A stretch of 64,000 bases of DNA, from NCBI GenBank assembly GCA_040437565.1, contig JBDOQK010000023.1:1-64000 (forward strand), in the 5' to 3' direction. Origin of the DNA: Albugo candida. Lineage: Eukaryota. A model generated the notes under the pieces. It was given only the letters and a program-made list of their open reading frames with translations. It did no database searches and was not told the DNA's origin. Of this stretch, positions 42,423 through 53,566 are shown in pieces; position 1 is the first letter of the stretch; every line of letters begins with the position of its first letter. The translations under genes and the position numbers were made by a program.

Positions 42423-44552
42423 TTAGGAGCGTCGATGATATTTAAAATATAGCAAGCAAGTAAAGATAATCTGAAGTCCCAGTGCGTATACAGCCAAAAT
42501 AGCCATATTCTGGCCCACTTGAACGTCTTCCATCCCGTACTGAGCTAAAATCTTCCAGGAAACGTCCGTGTCGACCACTGAAAAGTGGCTGTACATGAAG
42601 GACTCGAACGAGTATGTGTGAAAGGCGGCATAATATCCCCATCGCCAGTATAGAGGTATTGCGTCGCGCGGGACCATGAAGCCCTCACATAGCATAAACA
42701 TTCCAAAGACACCTGCTCCAAGTGCAATACCAATGATATAGTGAGGTACTGCAGCCCCCAAGACGTGCATGAACGATTCTGCCGTGACTAATGATAGGAA
42801 AAGGTTGATAAAAAAAGACTTGAACGTGTGGATCGATGCGAAATGAACGACGATAGTTGATGCCAGCAATGTGATAATGACGATTCCAGGAATCGAAGCT
42901 ACAAAATTAGCAGCGACATAACTTATCAGATTGATGGAATGATTCGTTCGTTCCCGTATAAAGACAGCTCGACCCTCGATGAATGATGGAATAGCAGCAA
43001 TGGACATAAACACCAAAAATGCTTGGACGTAGAAAAGCAATGGCACAATTTGCTCTTCATTGATCCGGCGATTGGAGCTCAAGTACATTGTTCCGACCAT
43101 CAAACAAAGTAATAAATACATCAGCACTCGAATCCATACAACCGCTGGGTTTCGTATCGTATTTATATAATTTCGATAACAGAGTACGCGGAATTGTAAG
43201 TAAGGCGAAGGATGCCAAGCTCGTACGAGATCTGGATCAATTCCGTACGCACCATTTTCACGATCGTGGATAATCGTCGAATGCAAGCGGAGTGCGTCAT
43301 TGCTTGTCCGCCATTTGTCAACAAATGGCTCAATATGTAAATCATCCACAAAATCTTTATTTACCAGTTGTACGAAATATTCGGCAGGATTTGAGTATGT
43401 CGGACATTGATACCCAATTGACGTAAAGTGATTGATAGCGTTGGCACCAGAGCCAAAATAAACCATTTCGCCGGAACTGAGAATCATGAGATTGGTCAAG
43501 AATTCGTAAATGGAGGACGAAGGTTGGTGAATCGTGACTACAACAGTCTTTCCATCCTTGCACAGATTTGACAAATGTTGGACGACGTTAAAAGCTGAGG
43601 AAGAATCCAAGCCCGACGTGGGTTCATCCAGCAAGAGAATTGACGGATTGGAAAGTAATTCCACTGCAATACTGAGACGTTTTCTCTGACCATTGGAAAT
43701 ACCTTTGTGAAAAAGATCACCAACTTGTGTTCCAGAGCAATTTCGAAGTCCCATACTATCGATAACTTCTTGAACGCGTATTTCCCGAGCAAGTTTCGGG
43801 ATATGGGTTGGTAGACTCAATGCGGCCGCAATACGCAGAGTTTCGAGAACCGTAAAGGACCCATAAAAAGACATATTGGGAGATACATAACTGGTCACAA
43901 TCCGGTAAGACTTTTCCTCACGAGCTTGACCGTTGACTTCAATGACACCTTCGATGTTGCCAGTGCTCGGATCAATTCGATTCGCTAAGAGATCCAAAAG
44001 TGTTGTTTTTCCTGCACCAGACGGACCAATAATGGCTGTTAATTCTCCCGGTGCTGAACGACCTGTGATGCCCCGGAGGATGCAACGAGACGATTTCTCT
44101 GTAAGCGCTTTCATTGGCAACTCCATCGAAGGTGTCTTCTTACTCTTTCTAAAGCATAATTTATTAGCTCCACGGATGGTATACGAGAGATTCTGCCACG
44201 CCAATGTGCAGTAATTAATATTTCTGAGTTGCTTACTAATATCCAAAAGTCCTAACGACAGTGAGTTACCGTGTCCATTATCGGGAACCGAAGCGATTGT
44301 GGATATAATGATATCTTCAGTGTGTTGTGAGGACTCGTGGACATTTCGATAATGTGTAATGGAGGAATTGAGACTCTGATGATCGCTGACTACAGACGAC
44401 TCGGGGTACTGGGACCCATGGAATATAGAGCTCGGTTTGCCTCGATTGCTACTGGAGTGTGTTTCAGACTTTGGCGAGTTCTTTCCATGTTGTATGCTGT
44501 GGTACCTTGCTGGGCTTTGCATGATGCACTCAATTGGTGACTTTCCTTGCAT
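42423..44552 (-). CDS. ABCG (White-type) half ABC transporter, 709 aa
   Basis: Walker A GPSGAGKTT, signature ISNGQRKR, Walker B LLLDEPTSGLD, TIHQP, NPAEY, then ~6 TM helices (NBD-TMD order). Confidence 0.96.
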   Translation of the reverse strand: MQGKSPIECIMQSPARYHSIQHGKNSPKSETHSSSNRGKPSSIFHGSQYPESSVVSDHQSLNSSITHYRNVHESSQHTEDIIISTIASVPDNGHGNSLSLGLLDISKQLRNINYCTLAWQNLSYTIRGANKLCFRKSKKTPSMELPMKALTEKSSRCILRGITGRSAPGELTAIIGPSGAGKTTLLDLLANRIDPSTGNIEGVIEVNGQAREEKSYRIVTSYVSPNMSFYGSFTVLETLRIAAALSLPTHIPKLAREIRVQEVIDSMGLRNCSGTQVGDLFHKGISNGQRKRLSIAVELLSNPSILLLDEPTSGLDSSSAFNVVQHLSNLCKDGKTVVVTIHQPSSSIYEFLTNLMILSSGEMVYFGSGANAINHFTSIGYQCPTYSNPAEYFVQLVNKDFVDDLHIEPFVDKWRTSNDALRLHSTIIHDRENGAYGIDPDLVRAWHPSPYLQFRVLCYRNYINTIRNPAVVWIRVLMYLLLCLMVGTMYLSSNRRINEEQIVPLLFYVQAFLVFMSIAAIPSFIEGRAVFIRERTNHSINLISYVAANFVASIPGIVIITLLASTIVVHFASIHTFKSFFINLFLSLVTAESFMHVLGAAVPHYIIGIALGAGVFGMFMLCEGFMVPRDAIPLYWRWGYYAAFHTYSFESFMYSHFSVVDTDVSWKILAQYGMEDVQVGQNMAILAVYALGLQIIFTCLLYFKYHRRS

Positions 44553-45216: not shown

Positions 45217-47637
45217 TCACTTTTTGCAGCTGTATCGATCGAATGGCGGCTGTGCAAAAGACCGTAGCGGTGATATAAAACACGAGGAATCAGAATTGCT
45301 ATGTAAAATAACTCGATATTCTTCGACAGCGCACTTGACGTACGAAAAGGGTATGTGAACGAGCCAATCTGATTCCATACTGTCCGTTTCACAACAGACA
45401 CTCTCTACCAAACAAACGGAATTTTTTTTTTCGGTGATGGGCTGGAGAGACAGTTGCATTGAATCATCTGTCGTTCCACATTGTGTCTGCTCTTCCGCCG
45501 GGTAATGCTGTGTTCTATCTGAACGAGTGATGTGCACGACTGATCGATTCGACTTTAATGAATAGATTAATCTCAATTTTCGATCGTAGTACTCGATGAC
45601 GTTGATGAGACGTTTTTCGAATATTTTCCATCGCTGTTCCTGAGGCTTGCTTGAATAAGGAGTTGTATTCTCGGGGATTTCACAATGTAGGAGCAGAAGT
45701 TGGTCCGATGTAAGCGATAGTGCGCTACGATTTCCCGGGTAGACCACGTAGAGAAGTACATGTTGATAATAGCAGCGAACTTCTTGACTCCAATGGAAAA
45801 AGAACCGCGCGAAATTAGCTTCCAGTAGCTGCAGTATTCGTATTTGTACCTCCTCTGATAGTTTGAGCAAGTGATTCAATAGAAACAAATGTGTGTCACG
45901 AAGTATTTCATAATGCTCCGATTCAAATAATCGCTGGAAAATCTGGTACAAAAGTAGAATTTCTTTCCAGTGCTCGGGAAGCGCTAATGTGCGGAAAAAA
46001 TCTGAAGAGTAGCAAATCAACTCATCCATAAACTGAAGGCACGCGCGCACGTGAAAAGGGAAAAAGCCATTCGTTTGTTTGAGAACATTGGTGAGGACAA
46101 TATAAATCATTGGAGAATGATCGCTCACTATACGACACAAAATGGAGAGGAAGTTCTGTGTTTGAGGCTGGGTACTGCTCAGATCAATTGAGGTCGAGTT
46201 GATAACTCCCGAATGCGATTCATTCTCATTTGTCTCATCAGGTTGGAGATGCATCAACTTGTCACGATACATTTCCTTGGTGATATCGCAGGTATGCTGC
46301 ACAATAGCATTAAAGCTTGGGGTTTGTGAATCGACAAGATGTGGAAACATGAGCTTCCATTTTGTAAAGTGCTGTATGCACGCAAGCAGCATACGAGCCT
46401 TTTGTTCTTTGTCAAGTACCTGTAGCACAATACCTGCATCCATGCATCTTTTTTGAACCGTATGCAATAAAGTACATTTATGGCTGTCCACGTGTTGCTC
46501 CCAATCAAGCTGCAGCTCTTGCGCAAAGGCCGATCGATTCTCTGGGAAAAGTGTGTCCAGAATCTCGGCTCGGGACACTGAAATACGCCAATACGTGGCT
46601 GCCAATAGCAATACAACCAGCTCCTGTTTCAGTTTAGCGTAAAGCAGACTCCCAGGTCTTTCAAGTTGGCTCCCTCGACTATTTCCTGACTGCAATAAGA
46701 CAAGTGTGTCAAAGTGCAAGCCCACGTATCGCTCAATCAAGCTACATTCACAAATGATCGGTTCTTTCGGTCGCATTGGAGGCTGCTTTTGTGTGGTCCT
46801 GGCCCTCTGTCCAGTCAATGTATGCTGCCCTCTTGGTGTTCTTCGCGACGTGGATCGTCGACTGACCGATATTGACCGAGTTTGATTGTTGACAGCACTA
46901 CAGACACGCACGTTCATTTGTTTTTTTTGAAAAAAATTCGCAATATTTGCTCTTTTCTCCCTTACTCGTCCAGTTTTACTAATGTCATATTCAGGTTTTT
47001 CAGATTTAAAACTGGGATACAGATTTTGGCGCGCGTATGCTGCTGAGTTTTCGCTCAGTATGCTTGAAAGAAGGTAATCCCAATGAGGAAGTAGTACGAG
47101 CACTTGGATCAATTTCCAGACCGCGTAGATCCACTGGGCCGTATTCGCGACATAAACTCGTCGGTTGTACTGATCTCTATTTCTTCTATGCCAAAATCTA
47201 TTCGGTGCACGTGTTTCTGAACACAAATCTTGCCGTTTTTCTCGGTTCTCTTCTTGCTTCAGTAAAGCCTCGTGATAGAGCTTTTCCCAAAATTGACAAA
47301 GCAATGTGACGTACTGCACGAAAGACACCCTCATAGTACGATTTCTTTCGCGTCTTGTAGTACGCTCCAGGTACCCTCTATTTTTTAAGCACTGGAATTC
47401 TACTGACTCGGCCGTCAAAATTGTTGCTACCAGCAAGATTTCATCGGCAGAATAAATCGTCAAATTATAAGAATAGGATCGTTGCAGGAATCGAAATAAA
47501 TGTTTGGAGACTCTAATTTTTCGCAATGCTACTGCACGATCTCTGCGCAATTGTGATGTCGTATTGCATTTGTCTCGTTGTCTTTTCGCTTTAACCGATT
47601 GCAAGAGACTTTCCCACGCATTGGCGATAAGTCTCAT
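45217..47637 (-). CDS. 806-aa helical protein with a probable DUF1765-like C-terminal region
   Basis: Uninterrupted 2.4-kb ORF. FARFFFHWSQEVRCYYQHVLLY resembles the HWxxxVRxY motif recalled for DUF1765; the domain call is tentative. Confidence 0.75.
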   Translation of the reverse strand: MRLIANAWESLLQSVKAKRQRDKCNTTSQLRRDRAVALRKIRVSKHLFRFLQRSYSYNLTIYSADEILLVATILTAESVEFQCLKNRGYLERTTRRERNRTMRVSFVQYVTLLCQFWEKLYHEALLKQEENREKRQDLCSETRAPNRFWHRRNRDQYNRRVYVANTAQWIYAVWKLIQVLVLLPHWDYLLSSILSENSAAYARQNLYPSFKSEKPEYDISKTGRVREKRANIANFFQKKQMNVRVCSAVNNQTRSISVSRRSTSRRTPRGQHTLTGQRARTTQKQPPMRPKEPIICECSLIERYVGLHFDTLVLLQSGNSRGSQLERPGSLLYAKLKQELVVLLLAATYWRISVSRAEILDTLFPENRSAFAQELQLDWEQHVDSHKCTLLHTVQKRCMDAGIVLQVLDKEQKARMLLACIQHFTKWKLMFPHLVDSQTPSFNAIVQHTCDITKEMYRDKLMHLQPDETNENESHSGVINSTSIDLSSTQPQTQNFLSILCRIVSDHSPMIYIVLTNVLKQTNGFFPFHVRACLQFMDELICYSSDFFRTLALPEHWKEILLLYQIFQRLFESEHYEILRDTHLFLLNHLLKLSEEVQIRILQLLEANFARFFFHWSQEVRCYYQHVLLYVVYPGNRSALSLTSDQLLLLHCEIPENTTPYSSKPQEQRWKIFEKRLINVIEYYDRKLRLIYSLKSNRSVVHITRSDRTQHYPAEEQTQCGTTDDSMQLSLQPITEKKNSVCLVESVCCETDSMESDWLVHIPFSYVKCAVEEYRVILHSNSDSSCFISPLRSFAQPPFDRYSCKK

Positions 47638-48229
47638 TACGTAGTCACACTATAAAACTGATAGTGGTGCGATCTTGCCGCTAGATATGTCGATGGAGAC
47701 GAGACCGCCATGAAAAATTTGCGACATAATGCGTTTGCAGAAATAGTTTTCGGTCTTACAAATTGCAATTGAATTTCTGTGACCTTTCAAGATCGGGCCA
47801 CGTCGACAGCGTCATCATGAGTGTGATTGGTACAAAATGAGAGCGTTTGCAGAAATGAAGAGCTCCAATCAAATGCATGTCGCACGCATAGAATGTCAAC
47901 TCGCTACACGTGACAATGTGTCTCATGCACTTTGCTGATTCGTATCCATAATTCTTGCACGAAATCTGATCATCGTATTCTCTCCTCTGTAGCCTTTCCT
48001 ATTAAAAGCAGACGATGTGGTTGGCTATAACAACATCTTCGTACCGTACTCTTCAAAACCTAGACCCATTTGAAACCCATCCGAATGTCCGGAACGTGAT
48101 CTGATCTAGAGATATTTCCATACTCTTTTGCCAGCATCTCTTGGCGCAATCACTATTTTCAAGCCTCTATATATCACTTTATCCTCTGATCTACCTGTCT
48201 CTTTATTTTTCATCTTCCCTCTCTAACTA

Positions 48230-51116
48230 ATGGCATCACAAACACGTCCTGAAAATGTCGGAATTCTCGCCATGGAAATCTACTTTCCGAATACCTACGT
48301 CACTCAATCGGAATTGGAGGACTTTGACCGCGTCCCCAAAGGTAAATACACCAACGGACTCGGTCAGCAGAGTATCGCGTTCACCGGCGACCGCGAAGAC
48401 GTGAATTCCATTGCGCTAACTTGCGTGCAAAGTCTCCTTACAAAGTATGCAATCAATGTCAAAGAAGTGGGAAGACTGGAAGTAGGCACAGAAACGCTTG
48501 TCGATAAGAGCAAATCCACAAAAACGGTTTTAATGCGTCTGTTTGCTTCCGAGGAGACAGCTGAAATGGAAGGAGTTAGCACACTGAATGCTTGTTATGG
48601 TGGAACTGCTGCCTTCTTTAACGCTGTGGATTGGATTGAGAGTTCGGCATGGGATGGGCGATTCGCATTAGTTGTGATGCCGGAAATCGCGGTGTACGAT
48701 AAAGGCGCCGCACGTCCGACAAGTGGCTGTGGAGCGATTGCGATATTACTTGGACCAAATGCTCCAATTGTCCTCGATAGTACAACACGAACGACTTTTA
48801 GTGGCGATATTTACGACTTTTATAAGCCAGATCCAAGCACGGAGTATCCCGTAGTGAATGGATCGACTTCACAGACGGCGTATTTACGAGCATTGGATTT
48901 GTGCTATCAGCGATTCGCTTCCAAGCAATCGGAATCTTGCGTCATTTCTGATTTCAGAAATGTTGTATTCCACTCGCCTTACAACAAATTAGTGCAAAAG
49001 GCATTTGCGAGAGTATGCTCTTCCCCTCTAATCGATCCAATCGAACTAATTTTCTCTGTAGCTTTGTTATTTGGACTATCGACGACAAGCACACATACAA
49101 ATGGATCATCCACTCGCTCGCTGGAAAGAATCGCCTTTGAATACAACGTACGAGGATCGCGAGTTGGATTTGAATGCCCGACAAGTAGCACAGGAATGGT
49201 ATGCGCATATGGTGGCACCGAGCTGCACAACGTCTCAACGGATTGGGAATACGTACACTGCTTCTTTGTATATCAATTTGGCCACTTTGGTCGCTTCGTC
49301 CTGGCAATCCTGGAATGAGAATTCTTCCGACAAGACGATTCTCATGTATTCGTACGGCTCTGGCTTTGTCGCATCCATGTTTCAGCTACAAATTGCTTCG
49401 GATCGTAATGGAAATCGCTTCAGTTTGGAACGTATAGCGATCTCTTTGGATTTGGAAGCACGACTACAATCTCGAGTACAGAAAACCCCAATTGAGTTTC
49501 AGCGTTATTTGGAGCTTCGCATTCGAAGCTTTGGGCAAAAGGAGTGTTCACCGATACAGCCAATCGACGACTTACGTGACGGAACCTTTTATCTCAATTG
49601 TATCGATACTTCTCACCAGAGAATGTACGCTCAGAAAGGAGAAGCGATTGTGTCTCCGCCTGCAAAACAGCATCAGCCTTCAAGCACAAGTCGCAGTCAC
49701 AAATTTGCATTGCAATCTCCAGTTTTTGTGACAGGAATAGGCATCCAACTTCCGGGCTCCAGTGACATTTCGAGTCCCAAGGAAGCCTTTCAGGCTCTTT
49801 TACGAGGCACCAATCGTATCGAACGCTTGCGTGAGAGTGCAATCGATACAATGCTCGATAAGAATATCAGTGTTTTGAAAAAGACCTCGACAGGACGCAA
49901 GATGGAGCCCGTTACCCAACGCCATGAAAGCATTCAGGTAGCAGCTCGTATCAGCACTTCACCAGGAGTCGATCTCGCAGGAACGTACGGACTGGATCCC
50001 GTGATTGTGGAGACGATGGATTTGGCTACGACGATCGCAATTGCTGCAGGATTGGATGCTTTACACGCGGCCATGCTCGTCGCCGGACATGAAAGTAACG
50101 ATGCTCATCGCTGGAAGCTCGATGATTCTATCCGCGACTCTGTTGGTGTCGTGTATGCGTGCTCGTATCCGACGATGCAGGCTACAATCGAACAAGTGAC
50201 TCGATATCACGCGTCCAAGGAAACGTATCGATATGATCGCAAGTTTCTCTTCCGTGTGCTCGTTCTCGCCAACGCACAATTAGCTCAAATCATCGGTGCA
50301 CGTGGTCCCAATACGCAAATCAATGCCGCGTGTGCAGGCACGACAATGGCGATATCACTGGCGCAAGATTGGCTACGTTTAGGCTATTGCACTCGAGTTC
50401 TTGTGATCTCTAGTGACGTCGCAAGCAGTGATGCAATGCTGCCTTGGATCGGGACGGGATTTCGGGCTATCGGCGCAGCCTCCACGGCCTCAACTGTGGA
50501 AGAAGCAGCTCTTCCATTCGATGCGCGAAGAAATGGCATGGTGTTGGGTGCAGGTGCAGTTGGACTTGTCTTGGAGATAAAACCACTTCCTCAGACGCTA
50601 TCCACTCGTTCGGTGCGTCTTGTAGCGTCTCAAGTAAGCAATTCCGCATTTCATGGAGCTTCCTTGGACACCGATCACATCACAAAAGAACTGACGCGAT
50701 TCTTACATGATGCGGAGAGAGAATTCGGTATCACTCGACAGGAATTCGCCAAGAACGGTGTGTATTACAGCCACGAGACATTCACGAACGCTTCATCGAC
50801 GACATCGTGTGCGTACATTGAGATCAACGCATTGGAAAACGCTCTTGGGGATCCAAAGCTTTTGGAAGAATTGATGATAACCAATACGAAAGGCTTTTTA
50901 GGGCACGCGATGAGCGTTTCCTTCGAAGACATTGCAGCTGTACAAGGGCTCAAAGAGCAGATCGTCTGTCCTGTAGTCAACTTTCAGCTTCGTGATGCCA
51001 ACATCAGCTCCGTGCCATTGAAGCTGTCCAAAGGAGGACACTACAACCATCGATACGCCTTACGCTTTGCCGCCGGTTTTGGCTCTCAGATCGCCTTCAC
51101 GTTGTACGCAGCGTAA
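48230..51116 (+). CDS. HMGCS: HMG-CoA synthase fused to a C-terminal beta-ketoacyl synthase (KS) domain, 945 aa; exons 48230-49012 and 49062-51116
   Basis: HMGS motifs GKYTNGLGQ, RLEVGTET, NACYGGT, FHSPY, GNTYTASLY, SYGSG. A 49-nt intron (gtatgc..ctaat..tgtag) restores ARLCYLDY. The open frame continues into VFVTGIG, NAACA, PFDARRNGMVLG, SHETFT, TKGFLGH and AAGFG. Confidence 0.92.
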
Positions 51117-51211
51117 GGCGTAAAGCGTGACGTCTCAATGTCAGGTAGCGAGATGGAAGGGAATCAAAATGGTCGAATGAAAATTCAATTGTGTAAATGC
51201 TTTGGATATTG

Positions 51212-53566
51212 CTACGCGCCACACACGAGACACTCTTCTTCTTCCTCTTCTTTGGCATCTTCAGTTTGCTTCAGCTTGGCGAGTGCCGAGTCGTCGAGGC
51301 TTTTCTGATCGACTGTGAATTGGATTGCATCTGCTCTTGGACGTGTTCGGAGATAGTACATTCCTGTCTTGAGACCTTTTTTCCATGCGTAGAAATGCAT
51401 CGAAGTGAGTTTACTGACAGTCGGGTCGGCAATGTGAATATTTAGTGATTGACTCTGACAAATGTACGCTCCTCGATCGGCAGCCATGTCCAAAATCGCC
51501 TTTTGCTTGATTTCCCAAACTGTTTTGTACTTTTCTTTCACATGAGAAGGAATTTCAGCGATATTTTGTACGGAACCGCGATCGCGAAGGATTTGATTCC
51601 GAACGTCTGATGTCCACAAATTCATCTCAATAAGCTCTTCCATGAGATATTTGTTGACAATTGTAAATTCTCCAGCGAGGACGCGTCGATTGAACATGTT
51701 GGAAGTGAACGGCTCGATAGACTCGCAATTGCCGAGAATTTGAGCCGTTGAGGCGGTTGGCATCGGAGCGAGCAGCAAAGAGTTTCGGATTCCGTGAGTA
51801 GCTACTTGCTCTTTCAACTGCTTCCAATCCCATCGACCGGAATCGGGAATGACCTGCCACATATCAAATTGAAAGATACCTCGACTAACTGGTGATCCAG
51901 CATAGCTCTCGTACGGTCCGAGTTCCCGTGCCAATTCCATGGAAGCTTCCATCGCCGCGAAATACATCGTTTCAAAAATTTCTTTGTTGAGCTCGCGAGC
52001 AGCTTTGCTTTCAAATGGAAGACTCATCAGTAAAAACGTATCGGCAAGACCTTGAACGCCGATTCCAATCGGTCGATGTCGCTGATTGCTCACTTGTGCT
52101 TCAGGAATCGGATAATAATTGAGATCAATGATTTTGTTGAGATTTTTCGTAACGATTTTTGTGATTTCGTATAATTTTGCAAACTGAAATTCTTTCTGAT
52201 ACACAAATTTTGACAATGCGATGGAAGCCAAATTGCATACTGCCACTTCTTTGGAGTCTGAGTACTCGATGATTTCACAGCAGAGATTGCTTGATCGAAT
52301 GGTTCCAAGATTCTGCTGATTGGATTTACGATTACAAGCGTCTTTGTAAAGCATATACGGCGTTCCGGTCTCAATCTGACTATCCAAAATGGCAAACCAC
52401 AATTGCTGGGCTTTGACAGTCTTTCGGGCAATGTTTTGAGACTCGTACTTTTCATATAACGCATCAAATTCGCTTCCCCATGTCTCATAAAGTCGTGGAG
52501 CCTCGTTCGGACAGAATAAACTCCATTCTTGGTTGTCTTCCACACGTTTCATAAACAGATCGGGGATCCAAAGAGCATAAAACAAATCTCGAGCTCGATG
52601 GAGTTCATTTCCATGATTCTTACGTAGTTCCAGAAACTCAAAGATATCCGCATGCCAGGGCTCTAGATAAATTGCAAAAGACCCTTTCCGCTTCCCACCA
52701 CCTTGATCAACGTATCGAGCTGTGTCATTGAACACCCGAAGCATTGGAACAATTCCATTCGAACTTCCATTCGTCCCGCGAATATAACTGTTGGTGGAGC
52801 GAATATTGGAAATACTGACGCCAATACCGCCAGCCCACTTTGAAATACACGCACATTGTTTCAGCGTGTCGTAAATGCCGTCGATAGAATCATCTTGCAT
52901 GGATAATAGAAAACACGACGATAATTGAGGTCGAGGCGTTCCCGCATTGAAAAGCGTCGGAGTTGCATGCGTAAAGAACTTTTGTGACATGTGTTCATAC
53001 GTTTCCAAAACGGCATCCAAATTCTCTTTGTGTATGCCGACAGCCACTCGCATTATCATATGTTGTGGGCGTTCACACACTTTTCCATTCACACGCAACA
53101 GATACGATTTCTCCAGAGTTTTAAAGCCAAAATAGTCGTAATCAAAGTCTCTATCACCGATAATGGCGGAATTGAGAGCTTCTTTGTTCTCCATAACAAT
53201 TCGATGCACATCGTTGGCGATTAATGGAGCGGGTACTTTGGTGGTTTCGTGCTTATTTTCGTAAAATAATTGAATGTTTTCACTGAAGACTTTGTTTGTA
53301 TTTTTATGTAAATTGGAAATAGCAATTCGAGCAGCCAATTTGGAGAAATCGGGATGTTGTGTGCTGCAGTAAGCTGCGGTTTCTGCTGCCAATTCGTCCA
53401 ATTCCGATGTGGTGACGCCCGGATACACGCCAGCAATCACTTTCTGAGATATTTGGACGGGATCAACGTATTCTGTGTTTAAGTTGTAGCAGAGTTTTGT
53501 GATTCGCGCAGTGATTTTGTCGAATTTGACGACTTCTTTTCGTCCGTCACGTTTGATGACATACAT
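51212..53566 (-). CDS. RNR1: Ribonucleoside-diphosphate reductase large subunit (class Ia), 784 aa
   Basis: ATP cone MYVIKRDG (ATG at 53566), [42 protein letters not shown] and C-terminal CLVC. Confidence 0.98.

Follow-up and report, generated by a model that had tools for sequence, protein, structure and literature searches.

A gene of Albugo candida joins HMG-CoA synthase to a ketosynthase and may mark a malonyl-CoA-dependent entry to the mevalonate pathway

One gene of the oomycete Albugo candida was found to encode a 3-hydroxy-3-methylglutaryl-coenzyme A (HMG-CoA) synthase (HMGS) and a ketosynthase (KS) in a single protein, as seen in Table 1. The gene lies in a 64,000-nt stretch of DNA, hereafter the window (contig JBDOQK010000023.1 of assembly GCA_040437565.1, positions 1 to 64,000 of the forward strand). 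Both catalytic modules are intact, tethered and co-transcribed. Comparison with homologous proteins places the gene in an HMGS-KS family common to oomycetes and ochrophyte algae. We infer, with a confidence that falls a little short of even, that the KS supplies acetoacetyl-CoA, made from malonyl-CoA and acetyl-CoA, to the HMGS.

In the proposed mechanism, the KS would take an acetyl group from acetyl-CoA onto its own Cys and would decarboxylate malonyl-CoA to give an acetoacetyl thioester. The tethered HMGS would then join this thioester with a second acetyl-CoA to form HMG-CoA. With such a pairing, the mevalonate pathway would be entered irreversibly and the two steps kept together. The fusion would do the job of Streptomyces NphT7 with HMGS, or of the archaeal thiolase/HMGS complex, by means of a different enzyme class.

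An initial annotation of this stretch, made from the letters alone, had described one 49-nt intron, a complete HMGS with its Glu, Cys and His motifs, a short Pro/Ser/Gln-rich linker and a KS of about 465 aa with a Cys-His-His triad, and had seen no acyl carrier protein (ACP) or acyltransferase (AT) domain. Each of these points was upheld, including the codons given for the triad. The intron was supported by the HMG_CoA_synt_C profile (PF08540), which matched residues 180-261 at the close of exon 1 (3.7e-25, 89.5 bits, profile positions 1-89) and residues 2-192 of exon 2 (4.3e-36, 125.4 bits, profile positions 91-280). Since the profile resumes at 91 after 89, the splice restores one unbroken domain. 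Contigs from runs X1 and X5, which belong to two studies, omit exactly 49013-49061 with GT..AG ends, and a contig from run X9 retains it; none of the three runs is on record as RNA, and the kinds of run are guesses. A single 5479-nt X1 contig covers 48100-49012 and 49062-51300 without a break, so that the spliced form crosses the HMGS-KS junction and spans both domains. Assembled contigs show neither transcript ends nor levels, and additional transcripts with the KS or the HMGS alone may exist. Two diatom transcriptome open reading frames (ORFs) marked as complete, P0096 (1071 aa) and P0100 (1123 aa), carry all four Pfam domains, and a protein of Skeletonema grethae falls in the cluster of P0100. 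An assembly or gene-calling artefact was considered and ruled out by the continuous frame, the spliced contigs of two studies and the recurrence of the architecture in many independent genomes and transcriptomes.

The best database match of the gene product was a public A. candida protein of 931 aa (P0001; 99% identity). It has the identical splice and seven residue differences, and starts 14 aa later, at Met15 (48272). The N-terminus of the 945-aa model, MASQTRPENVGILA, includes 14 further residues (window 48230-48271), and in the family alignment these find counterparts in A. laibachii and other homologues. Because these residues align, the upstream ATG at 48230 is probably the better start and the public one too short.

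The N-terminal half was examined with Pfam and TIGRFAM profiles. PF01154 matched residues 6-179 in exon 1 (2.4e-77, 259 bits, cutoff 25). The eukaryotic HMGS equivalog TIGR01833 has a cutoff of 286 and scored 383 bits with exon 1 by itself; exon 2 matched its positions 268-457. By these profiles, the N-terminal half is an ordinary eukaryotic mevalonate-type HMGS with full N- and C-terminal domains. Glu88, Cys122 and His248, which we take to be the catalytic residues, fall in columns that were unchanged in 40 of 40 fused proteins (alignment A3). No separate Albugo HMGS was seen among the best 120 shorter HMGS matches, which is not proof of absence; the near-identical ones (99-100%) were only fragments of exon-1 length.

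In the family alignment, the Albugo protein opens directly with the HMGS fold, and a presequence was not seen. Other lineages differ at this end. At the N-terminus, the Saprolegnia and Aphanomyces rows (P0011 and P0037; alignment A1) are about 90 aa longer, and this extension contains long hydrophobic stretches and may be a membrane anchor. N-terminal extensions rich in Ala and Gly occur in several diatom fusions, and Albugo and the Peronosporales have none. Since the extensions vary by lineage, localisation may differ among the lineages as well.

The fusion was found to be widespread. In 108 of the best 120 KS matches, an HMGS Pfam domain stood alongside PF00109; the remaining 12 were 462-699 aa long and are possibly fragments. 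The oomycetes with the fusion were Albugo, Lagenidium, Pythium, Globisporangium, Phytophthora, Peronospora, Bremia, Plasmopara, Saprolegnia and Aphanomyces, and the diatoms were Mayamaea, Fragilaria, Leptocylindrus and Entomoneis. Other ochrophytes were represented by Phaeothamnion confervicola and by a 1099-aa EukProt protein whose 90% cluster contains a Dinobryon sequence.

Whether the fusion had already been described in oomycetes was a question that the initial annotation left standing. Table 2 of Morris et al. (2009; PMC2705460) lists an HMGS-KS fusion for Phytophthora sojae, Thalassiosira pseudonana and Phaeodactylum tricornutum as one of 21 multifunctional proteins older than the split between oomycetes and diatoms. 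Each domain name occurs once in the main text, in that table row, with no comment on function (PMC2705460). The architecture is also already annotated in databases. It is thus not new, having been in print since 2009. Novelty of the fusion itself does not stand, and no functional study of it was found in the openly accessible literature. A mevalonate-pathway review from 2026 is silent on oomycetes, stramenopiles, ketosynthases and NphT7. In pathway and expression papers, P. infestans PITG_12495 and P. tricornutum Phatr3_J16649 are treated as plain "HMGS" (PMC5289490, PMC6330534, PMC12168105). Phatr3_J16649 is model 16649, which is given as a fusion by Morris et al. (PMC2705460). From its HMGS annotation and the homologue search, PITG_12495 would be the member of the fused family in P. 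infestans.

Next, the KS half was assigned to a class. In the domain scan, PF00109 scored 5.6e-18 (65.9 bits) against a cutoff of 20.8, and PF02801 fell just under the same cutoff with 19.9 bits. An AlphaFold2 (AF2) model of the domain, built on 53 sequences, had a pLDDT of 94.2 and a pTM of 0.94. The possibility raised earlier, that the C-terminal half might match no KS fold, does not hold for this model: it matched Escherichia coli FabF with a VIA Z of 47.2 (root-mean-square deviation 2.3 over 397 residues) and type II polyketide synthase (PKS) ketosynthases with Z 45-46, and Foldseek matched it to Pseudomonas aeruginosa FabF at 6.3e-31. Z was 24-26 against thiolases and about 24 against ketoacyl-ACP synthase (KAS) III. 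The predicted structure thus identifies the domain as a true KAS I/II, or elongating-KS, fold. It did not pass as a FabF orthologue: the TIGR03150 fabF model scored 105.9 bits against a cutoff of 493.75, and identity to FabF structures was 20-23%. Nor did it pass as an enzyme of the NphT7/KAS III type, with a Z of about 24 compared to 47 for FabF and with His, not Asn, at the second catalytic position. The PF08545 match spans just 37 residues around the KS Cys.

The catalytic residues were followed through 126 HMGS-fused homologues with a complete KS domain, which cover oomycetes, diatoms, Phaeothamnion and one protein from a cluster with a Dinobryon sequence. In the numbering of the KS domain, Cys209, His356, Thr358, Thr360, Lys395, His400 and Phe458 were each kept in all 126. 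The two Thr belong to H-E-T-x-T, and Phe458 is the gate Phe. One pairwise alignment (phmmer against FabF) had suggested that the first catalytic His was replaced by Ser, since it set the "AHGT" His over a Ser seven residues downstream; the family and profile alignments overruled this. In the profile alignment, the invariant "SHET" His pairs with the "HGT" His ("CHGT") of canonical KS domains, and a 5-residue insert follows. As aligned, the KS keeps the full set that a decarboxylative Claisen condensation needs, namely Cys, both His, Lys, the two Thr and the gate Phe; taken with the fold of the model, this makes it likely to be catalytically active. One alternative is a KS without catalysis that regulates the HMGS by sensing malonyl-CoA or acyl-CoA, or that provides a scaffold for dimerisation. 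KS and HMGS are both dimeric folds, and no activity or functional study has been found reported, which would suit this alternative. The conservation of seven catalytic and substrate-binding positions in every one of the 126 homologues would be unexpected for a purely structural domain, and we consider a non-catalytic KS improbable.

The position placed at FabF Ile108 by pairwise alignment, which is weak there, was aromatic in all 126 homologues (Phe in 114, Tyr in 12). In FabF, Ile108 limits chain length. If the effect of the I108F mutation applies here, the aromatic residue would fit a very short primer; we take this as a weak lead. In the same domain, diatom and other ochrophyte KS sequences share an insert of about 60 aa, conserved among them, near the place corresponding to 50205-50225 ("HASK" to "ETYRYD"), which oomycetes do not have. 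This insert (alignment A1 columns about 933-995) breaks HMMER matches into two or three stretches.

A HMMER scan with the KS gave 3414 matches, of which the best 150 were considered further. Of these, 147 were classed: 93 were longer than 1200 aa without HMGS, 46 were shorter without HMGS and eight carried HMGS; the other three had already been found in the search of the best 120 KS matches. The long proteins have the layout KS-AT-ACP-KS*-ACP-KR-DH-PPTase (KR, ketoreductase; DH, dehydratase; PPTase, phosphopantetheinyl transferase), with an N-terminal part that is PfaA-like. It is to the internal second ketosynthase (KS*) of these giant PfaA-like bacterial synthases that the Albugo KS is most closely related, with 35-45% identity and E of about 1e-100. 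Named examples were a few proteins from metagenome-assembled genomes (MAGs) labelled Myxococcota and one labelled Asgard. P0149 (3592 aa) is a KS* megasynthase with an N-terminal NMO (enoyl-reductase-like) domain, and its Asgard archaeon MAG label may reflect binning.

Trees divided the KS* domains into three groups: those fused to HMGS, those of the megasynthases and a eukaryote-looking group with a methyltransferase-like N-terminal domain. In a FastTree of 102 rows, in which every second row longer than 1200 aa was omitted, the canonical-KS outgroup fell outside the three groups and the base was unresolved. In a quick IQ-TREE of 58 hand-picked rows, the very long outgroup branch joined inside the fused clade beside the long Albugo branch. 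Since the root was not placed reliably, we draw no conclusion on whether transfer went from bacteria to eukaryotes or the reverse. The third clade had support of 98-100 and consists of metagenome or run-assembly proteins from outside the window (P0134, P0143, P0170, P0144, P0147, P0153, P0156, P0210, P0140, P0188 and P0255). Its N-terminal domain has about 250 aa with the Rossmann-type motifs VLVFG, FDVILCFN and LRPGG..AGTG, and is followed by a low-complexity Ser/Ala-rich linker and a KS* without ACP; Pfam detects the KS alone. The resemblance of this domain to class I S-adenosylmethionine (SAM) methyltransferases (Atlas clusters at 0.89) is offered as a lead only. The active-site Cys of the KS was present in 126 of 126 fused homologues, 11 of 11 methyltransferase-like proteins and 91 of 92 megasynthase KS* domains.

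The third clade bears on another explanation, that the KS carries out a reaction unrelated to HMGS, for example with other acyl-CoA primers, and that the fusion only co-expresses or co-localises lipid and isoprenoid metabolism. As the same KS* type also occurs joined to a methyltransferase-like domain, KS* is not bound to HMGS chemistry, and the full-length model gave no confident packing between the domains. Against this, the fusion and its domain order are stable from oomycetes to diatoms, and stability of this kind is more usual for consecutive steps. The aromatic residue at the Ile108 position would also favour very short primers, with the reservations on alignment and mutant effect given above. 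An unrelated reaction is unlikely, in our estimate.

The three groups also differ at an additional Cys, Cys844, which lies 12 residues past the first catalytic His and 4 before an invariant Glu. The residue was Cys in all 126 fused and all 11 methyltransferase-like proteins and Ser in 88 of the 92 bacterial megasynthase KS* domains. A second Cys serves as the base in thiolases, so a thiolase-like KS could be imagined that joins two acetyl-CoA without decarboxylation, with Cys844 as the base, and passes acetoacetyl-CoA to the HMGS. The invariance of Cys844 in both of the KS* clades that have no ACP agrees with this. Yet the malonyl-binding and decarboxylating His-His-Lys-Thr set is fully kept, for which a non-decarboxylating enzyme would have little reason, and the fold lies much nearer to FabF, at Z 47, while thiolases reach no more than Z 26. 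In exon 2, the thiolase profiles PF00108 and PF02803 had no match at E 0.01 or better. Together, we give the thiolase-like reaction only a slim chance.

The search for carrier and loading functions was negative. Pfam found no ACP, AT or other PKS or fatty acid synthase domain in the 945-aa protein, and no ACP, AT or PP-binding domain in the 14 ORFs that were scanned of the 20 in the window with at least 130 aa. DUF35 also had no match in the protein. Genes of eukaryotic pathways are not clustered, and therefore a carrier protein could be encoded elsewhere. This matters for a further explanation, in which the protein is a beta-branching or specialised-lipid unit: the KS would extend an acyl chain held by an ACP from elsewhere, and the HMGS would add an acetate branch as in PKS cassettes. 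Such cassettes have a decarboxylating KS partner without the active-site Cys, a donor ACP and enoyl-CoA hydratase (ECH) enzymes. That the KS clade groups with megasynthases resembling PKS and polyunsaturated fatty acid (PUFA) synthases, and that HMGS homologues pair with KS-like proteins in the cassettes, would suit a branching role. What was found here is the active-site Cys in 126 of 126 fused homologues, neither ACP nor ECH domains in the protein or the scanned ORFs, and an HMGS half above the cutoff of an equivalog of eukaryotic primary metabolism. Also, the gene is kept in an obligate biotroph and over a very wide lineage, which fits a housekeeping use, and the search for a separate Albugo HMGS described above points the same way. 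A branching unit is therefore regarded as a poor prospect.

The preferred explanation remains the supply of acetoacetyl-CoA to HMGS by the KS. Since no ACP or AT was found in the protein or the scanned ORFs and no presequence was seen, CoA thioesters would be the simplest substrates for a KS in such a protein. A broader version of this proposal, which we hold more tentatively, is that oomycetes and ochrophytes as a whole enter the cytosolic mevalonate pathway, at its first committed step, not through a thiolase, but through an ACP-independent acetoacetyl-CoA synthase of the KAS I/II class that is welded to HMGS. It would have been recruited from the KS of a PUFA-synthase-like megasynthase, with Cys844 as one part of an adaptation to CoA.

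Several observations weigh against the proposal. First, some HMGS models, of about 460 aa, stand alone, for example those of Pedospumella (P0293, an ochrophyte transcriptome) and of haptophytes; should the ochrophyte models be complete, HMGS can function without the KS. Second, the linker between the two domains (residues 456-477, or 442-463 of P0001) has a pLDDT below 50 in the full-length AF2 model, and its length and sequence vary among homologues in the family alignment. That monomer model has a pTM of 0.55, a disordered linker and no fixed predicted contact between the domains; as a prediction it would neither support nor exclude channelling. Third, the nearest KS relatives sit in megasynthases that bear ACPs, so the ancestral substrate of the KS would have been ACP-bound. 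Fourth, a separate acetyl-CoA C-acetyltransferase appears in pathway tables for oomycetes (PITG_01783 and a gene of Saprolegnia), and a thiolase route may thus operate as well. Finally, the literature yielded no KAS I/II enzyme characterised as a CoA-dependent acetoacetyl-CoA synthase, and the NphT7 precedent is of the KAS III class, other than the KS here.

If the proposal is true, a sizeable and important share of the eukaryotes, among them diatoms and oomycete pathogens of crops and fish, would enter isoprenoid synthesis by an irreversible, malonyl-CoA-driven step that is missing from textbooks. Isoprenoid flux would then be linked to acetyl-CoA carboxylase and hence to fatty-acid synthesis. 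Terpenoid engineering in diatoms would have to rethink the "HMGS" gene Phatr3_J16649. The KS would be a lineage-specific enzyme domain that is not in plants or animals, and also a KAS I/II ketosynthase operating without a carrier protein.

Table 1. Positions in the window of the parts of the HMGS-KS gene, its catalytic codons and the neighbouring genes
Feature	Position	Strand	Details and basis
HMGS-KS gene, whole coding region	48230-51116	+	945 aa, 2 exons; ORF scan and spliced in-silico translation
Exon 1	48230-49012	+	261 codons from ATG 48230; HMG_CoA_synt_N and first third of HMG_CoA_synt_C
Intron	49013-49061	+	49 nt, GT..AG, phase 0
Exon 2	49062-51116	+	684 codons plus TAA
Start of exon 2, remaining HMGS C-terminal domain	49062-49637	+	PF08540, TIGR01833
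Inter-domain linker, Pro/Ser/Gln-rich, predicted disordered	49644-49709	+	about 22 aa; full-length AF2 model
KS domain	49716-51113	+	466 aa, aa 480-945; predicted KAS I/II fold, KS* clade
HMGS Glu88 codon, GTET motif	48491-48493	+	column invariant in 40/40 fused proteins
HMGS Cys122 codon, NACYGG	48593-48595	+	invariant column C108 of P0001, alignment A3
HMGS His248 codon, FHSPY	48971-48973	+	invariant column H234 of P0001, alignment A3
KS active-site Cys685 codon, NAACAGT	50331-50333	+	aligned with FabF active-site Cys
KS His832 codon, SHET; first catalytic His (HGT motif)	50772-50774	+	profile alignment
Additional Cys844 codon, in insert after first catalytic His	50808-50810	+	conservation across KS* groups
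KS Lys871 codon, NTKGFLGH	50889-50891	+	aligned with FabF "STKSMIGH"
KS second catalytic His876 codon, NTKGFLGH	50904-50906	+	aligned with FabF "STKSMIGH"
Stop codon TAA of HMGS-KS gene	51114-51116	+	
Poly(A) polymerase pieces (ORF)	39255-41285	+	
ABC-2/ABCG-type transporter (ORF)	42426-44552	-	
DUF1765 protein (ORF)	45220-47649	-	
Ribonucleotide reductase large-subunit gene	51215-53713	-	
FYVE plus CRAL/TRIO protein (ORF)	54080-56278	+	

The HMGS-KS gene converges on the gene for the ribonucleotide reductase large subunit, leaving about 100 nt (51117-51214) from one stop codon to the other. The X1 contig of 5479 nt extends beyond 51300, and the assembled contigs fuse these two convergent genes. 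None of the four neighbouring ORFs is linked to lipid or isoprenoid synthesis.

The Albugo protein was compared with known systems. It has in common with FabF and FabB the fold, the Cys-His-His triad plus Lys and the gate Phe, but identity is about 20-23%, and the Albugo KS has, in addition, a hairpin at its N-terminus and the insert that follows the first His, and no ACP in its chain. FabY, an enzyme of the KAS I/II fold, starts synthesis from acetyl-CoA with malonyl-ACP and is a precedent for a CoA-bound primer on this fold. The P. aeruginosa FabY, a "noncanonical ketosynthase" (PDB 4cw4), carries no HMGS fusion and resembled the KS model only distantly in structure (Z 32.3). The PfaA-like KS* domains share with the Albugo KS the motifs NAACA, SHET, NTKGFTGHPMG and AAGFGSQ and the 5-residue insert. 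Unlike the Albugo KS, they lie among AT, ACP, KR, DH and PPTase domains, which makes them ACP-dependent, and most (88/92) have Ser where the fused clade has Cys844.

Physical coupling of acetoacetyl-CoA formation to HMGS has precedents. The archaeal thiolase/HMGS/DUF35 complex couples the two, and so, reportedly, does the thiolase/HMGS/DUF35 complex of oral Streptococcus (PMC12960953). These complexes are non-covalent and rely on a true thiolase, with DUF35 as scaffold, whereas the Albugo protein is a gene fusion without a thiolase or DUF35 match. A functional parallel would be NphT7, which stands with the NphT5 HMGS in Streptomyces mevalonate clusters and, like the KS that we suppose to be active here, belongs to the thiolase superfamily, condenses with decarboxylation and is found beside an HMGS (PMC5509993). 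According to the same source, NphT7 increases mevalonate output, the thiolase equilibrium being unfavourable. NphT7 is homologous to KAS III and is encoded in an operon as a protein of its own, in contrast to the Albugo KS, which has the KAS I/II fold with Cys-His-His and is covalently fused to HMGS. By analogy, it is plausible that the fusion represents a further way of coupling acetoacetyl-CoA formation to HMGS; if the broader version given above is right, it would be a third independent answer to the unfavourable thiolase equilibrium after NphT7 and the archaeal complex, and the first eukaryotic one.

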